Of a stretch of 64,000 bases of DNA, positions 25,544 to 29,221 are shown in pieces. The translations under genes were made by a program, and so were the position numbers. The stretch's first letter is position 1; each line of letters starts with the position of its first letter. Source of the stretch: a phage; the sequence record PZ171032.1. The stretch is one strand, 5' to 3'. A model generated the notes under the pieces. That model was not told the origin of the DNA, did not search any database, and saw only the letters and a list, made by a program, of their open reading frames with translations.

Positions 25544-25897
25544 TTAGTGACAATCACCCCAATTACGACCACACAGGTATTCACCTGTGATCTGGAACGG
25601 GACGCCCATCATTTTAGAAGCTTGCCAGAAGCAATGCACCACCATTTCACCCACAGGGCTCCAGATAAGTTCAAGCTTTCCGTCATCGTTCAGGATAGGA
25701 TCGTACACCGTGTTTCCGTCTCTGTCAACCACTTCGTTTCCGTCCTCATCCTTGCGTGCCTTTTTGTACTTATGACCGTCGAACACATGAAGTTTGGCCT
25801 CCTGCTCTGCCTTAAATGCTTCCAGTTCTTCAATTGTGTCGAAGGTGTACACAGTCTTATACTTCGGTGTGTCAGGCACTTGAAGTTGGTACTCATC
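25544..25897 (-). CDS. family A DNA polymerase, C-terminal exon (exon 2)
   Basis: reading frame opens with DEYQLQV, supplying the DE of motif C (HDE), and ends ...GRNWGDCH like T7 gp5 (...GPNWAICH) and Klenow (...GENWDQAH); no ATG of its own. Confidence 0.65.
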   Translation of the reverse strand, partial: DEYQLQVPDTPKYKTVYTFDTIEELEAFKAEQEAKLHVFDGHKYKKARKDEDGNEVVDRDGNTVYDPILNDDGKLELIWSPVGEMVVHCFWQASKMMGVPFQITGEYLCGRNWGDCH

Positions 25898-26739
25898 CAA
25901 TAGTTCAGGTAGGTCGTTAAGCTACCCCGCACCATTACGTGCACAGCCATACAGTTTCCTGTATGGATCGGACTATCTCACTACCTTGTTACCAAGGCAC
26001 CTCCCATTTCGACCGCACTTGCTGGCCTACTCTACTCGCTTCTTCGCACCAATTTATGTTGGCGCTATGCTTTCGATAGTCTCTGAACGTTACTACCAGG
26101 TGTAGTTTTTAGAGATATGTTTCCACTGTCTTCTTTGCTTTATGGCTCTGACCGTCTCATAAGGATACCCAAGATCCCTAATCTCGCATTGTCGTAAACC
26201 ACTTTGTAACAGTTCGCAAATCTCCGTTACCTCATCCTCGGTCAGTACAGCGTTGGCATTATACTCACCGACTGGCCTTACTCTGAGGTCATTATCATAA
26301 GCGTGTTTGATATTTCCACCAGGGGTGGTCCATTCAAGGTTCCAGTATGCATTGTTGTATTTGTTTCCGTCCTTATGGTTCACCCATGTGAGCCTTTCAG
26401 GATCAGGGTTTGATACAAAGCATTCAGCAACCAAGTGGTGGACACCTTTTGTGCACTGCTTCCCCTCGATGAACATGGTTACGCAAAGGTAACCTCGACC
26501 ATTATCAAAACAGAACATTGTTGTATGATCACGTTTCGATAAAGGTATTGTTCCATCATCAAACACGGTATATCCGTGATAATCAACTGATCTAGCCATT
26601 TTAACTACACCCCTTTAGTCTTCGCTGCGGATTAGCATATTGAGCTTTTACCATGTTTAGGTGTAAAAGTCAACTTAGCCTTCCCGTCAATTAAAGAGGT
26701 TTTCGACGTGCATCACTGCACGAAGCCACAATGTTATTT
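25898..26739 (-). mobile_element. putative group I intron (842 nt) carrying an HNH homing endonuclease ORF, inserted in motif C of the DNA polymerase gene
   Basis: exon 1 ends CAU (U at -1), intron ends with G, joining restores Y-Y-H-D-E; GNRA-capped hairpin CCATACAG-GAAA-CTGTATGG at about 25947-25966; HNH ORF in separate frame. Confidence 0.6.
26093..26599 (-). CDS. HNH homing endonuclease
   Basis: HHLVAECFVSNPDPERLTWVNHKDGNKYNNAYWNLEW matches the phage HNH_3-type motif (H-x-V-x-E ... VNH-x-DGNK-x-NN ... NLEW). Confidence 0.8.
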   Translation of the reverse strand: MARSVDYHGYTVFDDGTIPLSKRDHTTMFCFDNGRGYLCVTMFIEGKQCTKGVHHLVAECFVSNPDPERLTWVNHKDGNKYNNAYWNLEWTTPGGNIKHAYDNDLRVRPVGEYNANAVLTEDEVTEICELLQSGLRQCEIRDLGYPYETVRAIKQRRQWKHISKNYTW

Positions 26740-29163
26740 ATGGTAATAGATAATACGACGAACACCTTCATCGTACCACCCACGCTTCACCATTTGGTGG
26801 TGCATAAGTATCCCAACTAAGTCACACAGCGATGCACCACCATTCTGTTGGTATGCATTAAGTAAAGAGTGTTTAGATCGGGTCCAGATGGCATGACCAT
26901 CAAAAGAGTAGATAAACTTCTTACCCGTTGCTTCCCAGAATTTCTCCAGATCCTCTTTACGCCCCTTAAGACCAGGGTTGGCATCCCAAAGTGCATCGAT
27001 CACCCTTTGTCCCAACTCTGGAGAGATGTCCAGCATATCTGCAACTTTATCTTTTTGTGCCCCGTACATAACCCCATACGTGATAGGTTTACCGTCGTTA
27101 CGAGACACCTCTCTGCCTGCTACTTTTGTATATGCCTCAGCATTGTTTTGGTGTGCGTCCCCGTTACTTACAACATCATAATACAAGCCGTTGTCGAACT
27201 CAAAGGCACCCCAAGCCCCGATAAGCTGCTCTAAGTTGGACCCGTCAATACCGATCTCAAAGTATCCTGGAGGAACACCCCACAGACTACGCATCTCTTT
27301 ACCCATAACCACTTTAGGAGATGGTTTAGGCATGTTTGCACAAATACTGTGTTTCTGTCTGGAAGTGTTTGTTAATCCAGAGCTTTTAGCAGGAAGCTTA
27401 TGGTCAATCTTCAAACGTGGGTGATTAAGAAGACCAGTATCAACCTTATCCTCCTTAATTGGATCAAGGACCGATCTGCGGTTTCGCAATGATAACCACA
27501 AGACGATATCTTTAGCCATCTCTCCGTTCAATTTTTCAAGATTCGGACATAGGTGTCCAAACGTATCTTTCAGTTGCGGAGAAGTAATAAGTGCTCTGGC
27601 TTTTCTACGTATTTTCCCGAATACTTCCTTTTTAATCCTTTCGGAGTTAGGAAAGCTTCGGAACTTGTGCACGGTTGTCTGGAACTTAGCATCAGTTTTG
27701 TTCCAGAAGTTGATAATCAGGTCACAATACTCTGACTCTAAAAGCTCGTCCATATATGCATATACTCGTGCATCAACATCTGCATCAGGTAGAGCTTTCT
27801 TCTTGCTGTCTTTAGTTACATCCTTAGTTCTCCACATTGTCGGAAGCCAACCAGCACTGATCAGGTATCGCTTAATATCGTCCTGATTGCTGATTTTCAT
27901 AGGTATCTTGCAGTCAGGCATTCGCTTCTGCTGCAGATCGCTTATTGCCTGATCCATCAGCTCTTTAGGTAAAGGTTGTGGTGTGGAGGTGCCCTTAATA
28001 TAACCTCTCAAGAAATCAGCCATCTTGTCTGGGTCTTTGCAGCCCATCTCTTCACACCATTTTATCCCCATTTTACTGACATCTCCTGTGGAGGTAAATG
28101 CTCGCTTAGGTGGGGCTTTGAACTCTAAAGCGCTCATGTCTACAGGATAGCCAAGCTTATCTTTTAACCATTTCCAACCATTATTGGAGATTGTCCCATC
28201 TTGGTTAAACGGCTTTTCAGGGAACTTGGGCCGCTGAGACATTGACAGCTCTTTTAAAGGTAGTTGTGGTTCAACACGATCAGCTATTTCTTTCATCCAC
28301 GCATCGCAACGGTCACGTAAAGCAATAGCCCCGTCTATGTCGAAATACACACCCTGACGGGCCTGCAGCTCCATCAGGAAGTGCTGCAGCATGCCTCGGC
28401 GTAATGCGTTCTTCCAGGTGATCTTCTTGAACCCTTTTGGCTTCTCTTTGGCAGGATCGTACATAAAGTTCTGCATGTCAGATTTGCCGTAGAATACACC
28501 TTTTGATTCCGCTACCAGCTCTTTCCAGAGCAGCTCCTGGATGATAACGTCCTCGAATACACGATCCACATACTTCCACAGCGGAAGATCGCGCCAGTCA
28601 TCAATTTGAACTTTCTGGTTACCAAGAGCGTAGCCCCATGCCATAAGGCCGTGAGGACCAACAGGCTGCATTTTCTTAGTAACCGGGTTGAATACAGAGT
28701 CCGGACAACCTTTTGGTAAAGGGCGATCAGGCCACAAGATTCGGCTCATCGCCAACGTATCGAACAGGTTAACCTGGTGGTCGTTGATAGTCCCCATACA
28801 TTTAGGATCACGGAACATATCAAAATGAATACCGGATAATCTCTCCATCAGCATAAAGTCATAACTGTAGCAGTTATGGCAGTTCAAAGCTGTTGGTGAC
28901 CAGTCGGAATTTCCTGTAAGCCAACCTTCCAACTCCGAAAAATCTGCTATGCGAACTTCAAAATCTTTATAAAGAGTTTTCTTTGCCAGAATAAAGTTCT
29001 TAGCCTTCTCTATATCCTCCTCGGAGTAGTGTGTGCGGTCATTTAGAGGAAGGAACAGCATAAAACGGTTCTTATTCAGCTCTTTAAACAGGCCGCAATG
29101 ATAATAAAGATCTGGGTCTTCCAGCAAACCGGATGACTCAAAATCGAACGACCACATGCTCAT
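26740..29163 (-). CDS. family A DNA polymerase (T7 gp5 / Pol I-like), exon 1 with 3'-5' exonuclease and polymerase motifs A and B
   Basis: Exo I FDFESSG; motif A IGIDGSNLEQL; motif B RNDGKPITYGVMYGAQ; ORF stops at ...IIYYH-K* exactly where motif C HDE is expected. Confidence 0.85.
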
Positions 29164-29221
29164 ATACAGTTCTCCTTAAAGGGGAGGCGGTTGTACTACC
29201 CCTCCCACTCTTTGTTAAACA

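Follow-up and report, generated by a model that had tools for sequence, protein, structure and literature searches.

The family A DNA polymerase gene of the phage described here, a Vequintavirus (rV5-like E. coli myophage), is very probably interrupted within motif C by a mobile group I intron of the IA2 type, 842 nt in length, that carries an HNH endonuclease gene. This reading was drawn from sequence comparisons centered on the 64,000-nt stretch of DNA that was analyzed (sequence record PZ171032.1, hereafter the window), which is 98.6% identical to phage isim and has 123 related records. The motif C polymerase intron is real but ordinary, and is already known: it is annotated in near-identical phages, and a homologous intron splices.

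The interrupted polymerase gene

Exon 1 of the polymerase gene (26740-29163, minus strand, as are all features below; 2424 nt) consists of 808 codons that encode the exonuclease domain and motifs A and B, and ends in ...IIYYH, with U as its last base. The open reading frame to which it belongs (26734-29163) terminates as ...RRIIYYHK followed by a stop, the His codon CAU ending at 26740. Exon 2 (25544-25897; 354 nt) encodes DEYQLQV...GRNWGDCH and a stop codon, the Asp-Glu of motif C being its first residues. In motif C (HDE), the insertion point separates the His codon from the Asp codon, and each exon length is divisible by 3. The initial annotation had proposed a split exactly at this motif; its coordinates and sequences, for the exons as well as for the 842-nt insert, hold to the base, and alignment with the HDE of T7 DNA polymerase places the break as it had been described.

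Joining of the exons generates a 925-aa protein that reads ...IIYYHDEYQL... at the junction, and only in this form are motifs A, B and C present in one polypeptide. The predicted spliced RNA is ...UACCAU/GAUGAG... (the slash indicates the junction here and below), corresponding to TATTACCAT/GATGAGTAC at the DNA level, and the junction-spanning stretch of the protein is R-IIYYHDEYQLQVPDTPK, which includes YYHDEYQ. The joined polymerase matches T7 DNA polymerase with E=1.4e-13, its YYHDE being aligned with the WVHDE(IQV) of T7 motif C and its motif A, GIDGSNLE, with T7 GIDASGLE. The Pfam DNA_pol_A match covers residues 620-742 before joining and 620-822 after it, its score of 31.8 bits being below the cut-off of 34.3.

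Joining after the His codon at the Asp codon had been suggested to restore YYHDE, and the junction protein indeed aligns as one tblastn piece, at 100% identity, with polymerases of sister phages that have no interruption, so that the arrangement is not due to chance. Uninterrupted polymerases identical to the spliced protein occur in typing phage 14, slur16, JES2013 and B9-1. A comparison with intron-less alleles had also been proposed initially; these were found in sister phages, read TATTACCAT/GACGAATAT at the junction exactly as predicted, and include the types GACGAATATCAG (typing phage 14) and GATGAGTACCAA (Murica).

Architecture of the intron

The insert (25898-26739; AAAUAAC...CUAUUG) is assigned to the IA2 group I introns through a full-length match to Rfam family RF00028, covariation, and the existence of intron-less and ORF-less alleles. 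P1 (26726-26743) associates exon CCAU (26740-26743) and intron AA with the guide UUGUGG (26726-26731), in keeping with the pairing of guide and exon end that had been foreseen; it places a U.G wobble, invariant in 10/10 diverged copies, precisely at the position predicted for the 5' splice site. It is followed by the P2 hairpin CGUGCA-GUGA-UGCACG (26707-26722), with compensatory changes in six of six pairs, and by the P3 5' strand ACCUCUU (26694-26700), whose partner GGGAGGU (25999-26005) is supported by covariation, three of the six P3 pairs being compensatory. P4-P5-P5a and P4'/P6 (26624-26692), as deduced from the Rfam alignment and the single-sequence fold, include the P element AAUUGACGGGAAGG and the Q element AAUCCGCAGC. 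The P6a 5' strand ACUAAAGGGGUGUAG (26605-26619) holds the Shine-Dalgarno sequence of the HNH gene and forms a duplex with the 3' strand CUACACCUGGUAGU (26092-26105), which corresponds to the last codons and stop of that same gene; closure of P6a over the Shine-Dalgarno sequence is seen in all seven ORF-containing copies.

The R element, J6/7 and P7 5' strand GUUCAGAGACUAUC (26075-26088) pair, in a pseudoknot with one compensatory pair, with the S element and P7 3' strand GAGAUAGUCCGA (25968-25979), the latter being identified by Rfam alignment and covariation. The two hairpins that define the IA2 type, P7.1 (26046-26065; single-sequence fold) and P7.2 (26011-26027; covariation-supported), follow the P7 5' strand and precede the P3 3' strand. 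In the copies of Seunavirus, Certrevirus and MaxTheCat, P7.1 amounts to no more than a short GNRA hairpin. P8 (25983-25998) displays compensatory changes in six of seven pairs, and P9 (GAAA loop), P9.1 and P9.2 (25908-25966) are supported by RNAalifold and covariation. The P, Q, R and S elements, AAUUGACGGGAAGG, AAUCCGCAGC, GUUCAGAGACUA and GAUAGUCC, align to the Rfam model consensus, and the R-element pattern occurs once in the window. The GNRA-capped hairpin of the initial annotation can be recognized both in P9 (GAAA, 25947-25966) and in P2 (GUGA). The insert had also been said to end in G; this terminal (omega) G at the 3' splice site (25898), which directly adjoins exon 2 in ...CUAUUG/GAUGAG, is a G in every copy examined. 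Inspection by eye revealed no convincing P10 helix by which exon 2 (GAUGAG) would pair with the P1 loop (AUAACA).

Support for the ribozyme fold

The covariance-model search that had been put forward as a check gave a match of Rfam Intron_gpI (RF00028) to 25948-26749 that covers the model from end to end (1-253/253), at 40 bits and E=1e-6 for the whole window. At the Rfam gathering threshold the whole-window scan gave no match, and the intron was found only with an E-value threshold. Its score lies below the curated gathering score of 50 bits, probably because the model must skip the 510-nt ORF in P6; natural ORF-less alleles reach 72.5 (JLBYU08), 64.7 (MaxTheCat) and 91.2 bits (18-1-2), and the core of the window copy is 86-100% identical, by segment, to the JLBYU08 allele. 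The whole-window E-value scan gave this single match, and thus no second group I intron, such as the rV5-type terminase intron.

RNAalifold, unaided, recovers P1, P2, P3, P6, P7.2, P8, P9, P9.1 and P9.2. Covariation was counted in ten diverged intron copies over 58 pairs, with P7 added to the RNAalifold consensus and the P4 pairs past the first two left out because MAFFT misplaces a one-base bulge there. Over all helices from P1 to P9.2, the P7 pseudoknot among them, bases pair in 98.6% of cells, as compared to 35-43% in slid controls, and compensatory changes are present in 30/58 pairs, a count reached by none of 500 shuffles. P7 itself is 100% paired, with a switch from U-A to C-G in three copies. 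The single-sequence fold of the intron has a z-score of -2.7. These data, together with the P1 wobble and the intron-less alleles, support the initial reading of the insert as a group I intron.

The endonuclease gene

The ORF looped out of P6a (26093-26599) encodes a 168-aa HNH homing endonuclease similar to I-HmuI. It had been annotated as an HNH_3-type endonuclease in a frame different from that of the polymerase; the frame (offset 2) and the endonuclease identity stand, through matches to PHROG 59 (E=9e-38) and to I-HmuI (1U3E; E=4.5e-6 over residues 12-100), but the match to Pfam HNH_3 is weak (E=0.0028, 17.7 bits against a cut-off of 24.8). The motif HK..K.NN...NL.W.T..N is invariant across six orthologues (47-72% identity). 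One motif position is Asn here (VNHKDGN) and Asp in I-HmuI and in the Certrevirus and Seunavirus orthologues, a replacement with which full nuclease activity is an assumption. The conserved TATTACCAT/GAYGAR region is presumably the target of the enzyme. The exon flanks bear no clean co-conversion or resistance signature, exon 2 being present as three synonymous haplotypes, because intron-less phages possess both the 'intron-type' and the other exon 2 haplotype.

Distribution and mobility

Vequintavirus alleles of the polymerase gene exist in three states, intron-less, with an ORF-less intron, and with an ORF-containing intron, their exons being 90-99% identical. In a spread sample of 60 among 117 Vequintavirus records, ~28 alleles are intron-less, 16 have an ORF-less intron (276 or 329 nt) and ~15 have the 842-nt form. 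The ORF-less alleles retain the complete ribozyme (276-329 nt) and no further sequence. The 842-nt form is found, in an identical arrangement, in ~30 independently isolated, viable lytic phages; an assembly artefact was also considered, and is ruled out by these independent genomes. At least six further groups of phages have the same intron at this very site, and carriers include Seunavirus, Certrevirus, Avunavirus, Pakpunavirus, an Aeromonas phage and Pectobacterium phage CB7. Presence or absence at one site among close relatives is the hallmark by which, on the compared alleles, the intron qualifies as mobile.

Comparison with known introns

Among the closest described cases is that of Bas58 HeinrichReichert (MZ501073), which is 97.9% identical over the whole locus and whose polymerase CDS, joined from two pieces, spans 3620 nt (2778 + 842) and encloses a 'putative homing endonuclease'. 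Bas57 MaxTheCat (MZ501094), unlike the window with its 842-nt copy, carries a 276-nt intron that is ORF-less and mosaic. The GenBank records of the BASEL collection already give the polymerase as a joined CDS (PMC8594841). Most other GenBank relatives, including the closest (isim), list the polymerase pieces as separate CDSs, and the founding paper on rV5 mentions the terminase intron alone, with no polymerase intron.

The CB7 intron CB7_50 has a homologous core and occupies the same insertion site, TATTACCAT/AAGTAACATTGTGG ... CTTTTG/GATGAATAC; RT-PCR and Sanger sequencing have shown that it splices in vivo, and that one HNH-associated insertion in the same phage failed to splice (PMC7344957). 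The CB7 copy differs from that of the window in that its HNH gene is another, shorter one with its start in the P5 loop, whereas the window HNH gene is in the P6a loop. Copies of this intron can be sorted by what they hold: an I-HmuI-like HNH gene in P6a, the stem of which locks away the ribosome-binding site of the gene, the shorter HNH gene starting in the P5 loop with its own sigma70-like promoter, or no ORF, some cores being mosaic.

Self-splicing IA2 introns that encode the HNH enzyme I-TslI are reported from the T7-like phages phiI and W31 (AY769989 and AY769990), where they are inserted at 'site 881' (numbering of E. coli Pol I; Bonocora & Shub 2004, as described in PMC3428280). They resemble the window intron in that they interrupt the gene for a family A polymerase in an enterobacterial phage, in being IA2 introns with P7.1/P7.2, and in having an HNH ORF in P6a with the ribosome-binding site within the structure. 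They differ from it in that the phage is a podovirus and the polymerase is distantly related. Site 881 is taken here to be the His of the motif C HDE, and hence a homologous position.

The introns of SPO1, SP82 and Bastille (with I-HmuI, I-HmuII and I-BasI) are also group I introns in family A polymerase genes of phages, but are inserted at site 674, in the fingers subdomain, and belong to phages of Gram-positive hosts. I-HmuI (1U3E) is the closest solved structure to the window HNH protein, and PHROG 59, the family of the latter, is found in polymerase introns of Bastillevirinae. I-HmuI is a nicking enzyme and cuts intron-containing DNA as well, two properties that the window protein is not known to share. 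The T4 introns in td, nrdB and nrdD (sunY) are of the IA2 type; their ORF loops out from one of the peripheral helices, and RNA structure sequesters the ribosome-binding site of the endonuclease. They share these three traits with the window intron and differ in their host genes and in their endonucleases, which are GIY-YIG I-TevI/II and HNH I-TevIII.

Alternative explanations

It is very unlikely that the gene is simply split, with a free-standing HNH cassette between two polypeptides (809 aa and 118 aa) that assemble into the enzyme without splicing. Such an arrangement reportedly exists in Aeromonas phage Aeh1, where NrdA is split by mobE and assembled from separately translated polypeptides. 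Two separate polymerase CDSs are indeed listed in many GenBank records, a TTG start at 25900 would be usable for the downstream piece, and the CB7 insertion that did not splice offers a precedent. Against these points, however, the insert contains a complete group I core kept by compensatory changes across genera, the break falls between adjacent active-site residues of motif C, ORF-less alleles that retain the full ribozyme would be senseless without splicing, and the homologous CB7 intron does splice (PMC7344957). A comparably low likelihood is attached to decay of the intron, by which the window copy would have lost ribozyme activity and the polymerase would be defective or dependent on a trans-acting factor: the window sequence itself pairs every consensus helix, its core closely resembles the well-scoring JLBYU08 allele, and the 842-nt form persists in ~30 independent viable lytic phages, in which the polymerase is essential, all of which outweighs the Rfam score below gathering and the lack of a clear P10. 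Removal of the insert at the protein or translation level, by an intein or by programmed frameshifting or bypass, has a negligible likelihood and nothing in its favor other than the interruption of the gene; the initial annotation had excluded an intein on the grounds of the stop codon and the change of frame, and its argument is upheld, since in the frame of exon 1 a UAA stands two codons into the insert, with several additional stops after it, the HNH gene uses a different frame, a search for Hint or intein domains gave none, and RNA structure already explains the insert.

Proposed course of splicing and homing, and significance

For the group I intron, the following course of events is proposed. 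The whole gene would be transcribed into one pre-mRNA; no terminator-like site was found between the exons, nor any promoter-like site just upstream of the HNH gene. The intron RNA folds into P1-P9.2, as covariation shows. By analogy with the family, an external guanosine would then attack 3' of the U in ...UACCAU, held as U.G by the guide UUGUGG, and the freed end of exon 1 would attack after the terminal G, yielding an mRNA that encodes the 925-aa polymerase with HDE intact; intron-less alleles show where the junction falls and that it is exact. On unspliced RNA, translation would stop two codons into the intron, as read directly from the sequence, leaving a protein devoid of motif C. As for homing, the HNH enzyme, like those of the I-HmuI type, presumably nicks or cuts intron-less polymerase alleles at co-infection, and repair of the cut allele would copy the intron in. 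Burial of the ribosome-binding site in the P6a stem, for which the pairing with the 3'-terminal part of the HNH ORF is evident, should limit HNH translation once the ribozyme has folded.

A broader and rather improbable reading sees in the motif C intron more than a passive parasite, namely a circulating lineage with swapped modules and a switch on the polymerase. One ribozyme lineage fixed at His/Asp may move among the unrelated Vequintavirinae, Pakpunavirus and an Aeromonas phage, T7-like phages are probably also carriers, and the intron center and the endonuclease appear to be modules that are exchanged independently of each other. Were this reading true, splicing and the truncated, exonuclease-only product of unspliced RNA would act on the polymerase as a switch that times its activity or senses GTP.

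The polymerase intron locus opens no new biological question. Its value for annotation is that most Vequintavirus GenBank records give a truncated 'DNA polymerase' and a 'hypothetical protein', when the correct entry is one joined 925-aa gene. The natural series of intron-less, ORF-less and ORF-containing alleles, which includes two endonucleases in different loops of one ribozyme, is useful for the study of homing, ORF loss and intron mosaicism, and is found in coliphages used for therapy and biocontrol.

The interrupted polymerase gene

The window derives from a Vequintavirus, an rV5-like myophage of E. coli; its 3.9-kb polymerase region matches 123 phage records, with phage isim at 98.6% identity. 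On the minus strand, the locus comprises an exon-1 ORF of 809 codons (26734-29163(-)) whose product ends in ...RRIIYYHK*, an ORF for a 168-aa HNH protein (26093-26599(-)), and a downstream polymerase frame of 118 codons (25544-25900(-)) that reads (M)DEYQLQV...GRNWGDCH*. The initial annotation had proposed that the polymerase gene is split at motif C, and its coordinates and sequence statements were all right when ORFs, cut sites and insert were rechecked: cuts after the His codon (26740) and before the Asp codon (25897) define an insert of exactly 842 nt, both exon lengths are divisible by three, and together the exons encode 925 aa.

The predicted exon junction is real, since intron-less sister polymerases match across it in one piece: a 235-aa query spanning the junction gave a single 705-nt tblastn piece per sister phage (98.7-100% identity) in the uninterrupted genes of E. 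coli O157 typing phage 14, slur16, JES2013 and B9-1. The comparison with intron-less alleles that had been suggested at the outset shows the gene joined at the predicted site, the DNA of typing phage 14 reading TATTACCAT and then GACGAATATCAG, with zero nucleotides in between. An alignment of the joined protein to T7 DNA polymerase (E=1.4e-13) runs through both motif A (GIDGSNLE in the window, GIDASGLE in T7) and motif C (YYHDEYQL and WVHDEIQV, respectively), and joining extends the Pfam DNA_pol_A match from residues 620-742 to 620-822; the insert therefore separates His from Asp within the catalytic HDE. An intein, already discounted in the initial annotation, and translational bypass are both ruled out by the stop codons and the frame change.

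A group I ribozyme core

Rfam at its gathering threshold returned zero matches in the whole window. With an E-value threshold, the group I model RF00028 aligns over its entire length (1-253 of 253) to 25948-26749(-) with 40 bits (E=1.9e-8 in the local search, 1e-6 against the whole window), passing over 510 nt in P6 that correspond to the HNH ORF. Natural ORF-less alleles provide a control for the effect of the ORF on this score: those of JLBYU08 (329 nt), MaxTheCat (276 nt) and Avunavirus 18-1-2 (317 nt) reach 72.5, 64.7 and 91.2 bits, above the gathering score of 50. The covariance search thus bears out the group I assignment, and the anticipated guide pairing with the end of exon 1 is present as well, P1 in the model pairing exon CCAU and intron AA with UUGUGG, with its U.G wobble exactly on the predicted 5' splice site; the last intron base is G. 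As expected of an IA2 intron, P7.1 and P7.2 follow P7 and precede the P3 3' strand. The ORF-deleted core of the window folds as a single sequence with z=-2.7, and its centroid fold includes P1, P2, P5, P7.1, P7.2, P8, P9 and P9.1.

In an alignment of ten intron cores from diverged copies, in which the P6 loop was replaced by GAAA, RNAalifold found P1, P2, P3, P6, P7.2, P8, P9, P9.1 and P9.2 unaided, with compensatory changes in 29 of 60 pairs. Once the P7 pseudoknot had been put into the consensus by hand, standard pairs occupied 98.6% of 580 cells, as against 35-43% when partners were slid by 1-3 columns, and in 30 of 58 pairs both partners had changed. These values were not reached in any of 500 column shuffles. 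Compensatory pairs are found in P2 (6/6), P8 (6/7) and P3 (3/6), and P7 switches from U-A to C-G in three copies.

The HNH endonuclease gene

The 168-aa protein matches PHROG 59 'HNH endonuclease' (E=9e-38), the family that occurs within polymerase introns of Bastillevirinae (PMC11878797), and Pfam HNH_3 weakly; its sole significant solved structure is 1U3E, I-HmuI of the SPO1 polymerase intron (E=4.5e-6). Where I-HmuI has a metal-binding Asp (VDHKDGN), the window protein has Asn (VNHKDGN). Both the motif HK..K.NN...NL.W.T..N and a C-terminal region are conserved in six orthologues from homologous introns (47-72% identity), indicating that the gene is under selection.

In all seven ORF-containing introns, P6a is closed by pairing of the Shine-Dalgarno region with the last ORF codons, so that the stem closes over a loop of ~500 nt; in some copies its 5' region also includes the start codon. 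The two paired strands in the window are ACUA..GGUGUAG and CUACACC..UAGU, and between-genus changes preserve the pairing. Neither a promoter-like site ahead of the HNH ORF nor a terminator-like site between the exons was found, which makes polymerase pre-mRNA the probable message for endonuclease translation. By analogy with T4 introns, ribozyme folding should turn off this translation.

Distribution, mobility and alternative readings

A 300-nt probe across the intron-less junction matches 117 Vequintavirus records. Of 60 of these, sampled at even intervals, ~28 are intron-less, 16 have an ORF-less intron (276 or ~329 nt) and ~15 the 842-nt form, with exon identities of 90-99% among the three. 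The same intron is present at the identical site (...TAC CAT, intron, GAY GAR...) in Seunavirus GEC_vB_MG, Certrevirus CR9 and CB7, the unclassified Vequintavirinae phage LTH01, Avunavirus Av-05 and 18-1-2, Pseudomonas Pakpunavirus SPA01 and Aeromonas phage TS9. Such a pattern, in which the intron is present or absent within one genus and recurs at one site among unrelated phage groups, marks a homing element.

Three observations contradict a split gene that does not splice, in the style of Aeh1 NrdA/mobE: compensatory evolution maintains the ribozyme core, ORF-less alleles keep the ribozyme alone, and the insertion falls between adjacent catalytic residues. An intron that has lost activity is unlikely, as all helices pair in the window copy, its core is 86-100% identical, segment by segment, to the allele scoring 72.5 bits, and dozens of viable lytic isolates have the 842-nt form. 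RF00028, covariation and the alleles thus support the proposal of a group I intron with an HNH homing endonuclease, and more precisely a typical mobile IA2 intron.

The first 12 nt of exon 2 (25886-25897(-)), compared with the matching positions of six relatives' loci (L005, L015-L019), occur as three synonymous haplotypes, GACGAATATCAG, GATGAATATCAG and GATGAGTACCAA. No simple target-immunity signature is readable there; intron-less phages have both the 'intron-type' and another haplotype. The intron-less Murica and rV5_ev156 share the haplotype of the intron-containing window, a hint of exact loss of the intron or of co-conversion over very short tracts.

Previous annotation of the intron

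In E. coli Pol I, His881-Asp882-Glu883 is the HDE of motif C, and for this reason site 881 is homologous to that of the window. At polymerase 'site 881' (E. coli numbering), T7-like phages phiI and W31 have IA2 introns that self-splice and contain an HNH ORF in P6a, according to the account of Bonocora & Shub (2004) given in PMC3428280. Near-identical genomes already have the intron annotated, and a homologue has been validated by experiment. HeinrichReichert (Bas58), 97.9% identical over the locus, has its polymerase deposited as a 3620-nt CDS joined from two pieces (2778 + 842), with a nested 'putative homing endonuclease'; that of MaxTheCat (Bas57) is also joined, and the BASEL paper used comparative genomics to annotate intron boundaries (PMC8594841). 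RT-PCR and Sanger sequencing demonstrated in vivo splicing of the CB7 intron, which holds CB7_50 and separates polymerase pieces CB7_51 and CB7_49 (PMC7344957); this intron shares with that of the window an identical insertion site and a homologous core.

The original rV5 paper described the terminase intron alone and gave the polymerase as a 775-aa protein (PMC3606486). In most public records, among them those of isim, FFH2, FV3 and navn, exon 1 is entered as a complete 'DNA polymerase' and exon 2 as a 'hypothetical protein' in its own right, read from a fortuitous TTG at 25900. This separate-piece annotation is a widespread error, and the main value of the finding is its correction. Some 16-21 GenBank MG0656xx records are labelled 'Campylobacter phage', host Campylobacter jejuni; over the polymerase locus they share 88-97% identity with E. 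coli Vequintavirus genomes, and the host assignment looks doubtful.

Intron variants and modules in relatives

The 276-nt ORF-less intron of MaxTheCat (L004 2855-3130), also present in RudolfGeigy, phita32 and others, is 84% identical to the window intron in P1-P3, 98% from P9.1 to the end and ~43% in the P4-P8 centre; it is thus a mosaic relative to the window intron, which suggests that intron lineages in competition for a single site have recombined. CB7 (L020 19851-20489(-)) and TS9 (L012 960-1698) have the same ribozyme at the same His/Asp site with a different, shorter HNH gene (38% identity across only 53 aa), whose ORF starts in the P5 loop and runs through P5', P4' and P6, downstream of a sigma70-like TTGACA-N17-TATAAT/TATGAT. 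The endonuclease module appears to have been gained independently of the ribozyme.

GEC_vB_MG, Av-05, 18-1-2 and CB7 have three-piece polymerase genes, with a second insertion further upstream that carries its own ORF (L006 1821-2503; L010 437-1152; L009 437-1155; L020 20811-21523), annotated as HNH in GEC_vB_MG and CB7; the window gene is without it. In FFH2 (L003 638-1372) and some other relatives, the primase/helicase and polymerase genes are separated by a free-standing HNH endonuclease gene. The window does not have this gene, and its gap at 29164-29221 is intergenic. A 78-nt stretch within the gene for the terminase large subunit, or close to it, in other Vequintavirus genomes (for example KP869112 40063-40140 and JohannBauhin 1215-1292) is 85% identical to P5-P4'-P6 of the polymerase intron and is presumably the rV5 terminase intron; the window has no terminase-type element. 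Introns with related cores, sharing Q/R or P9.1-P9.2 segments, occur elsewhere in different phage polymerase genes, in Meda (Salmonella, Felixounavirus; L014 ~1450-1700), where the gene is annotated as a join, and in the unverified phage S.Kent 1-2-1 (L013 ~850-1575).
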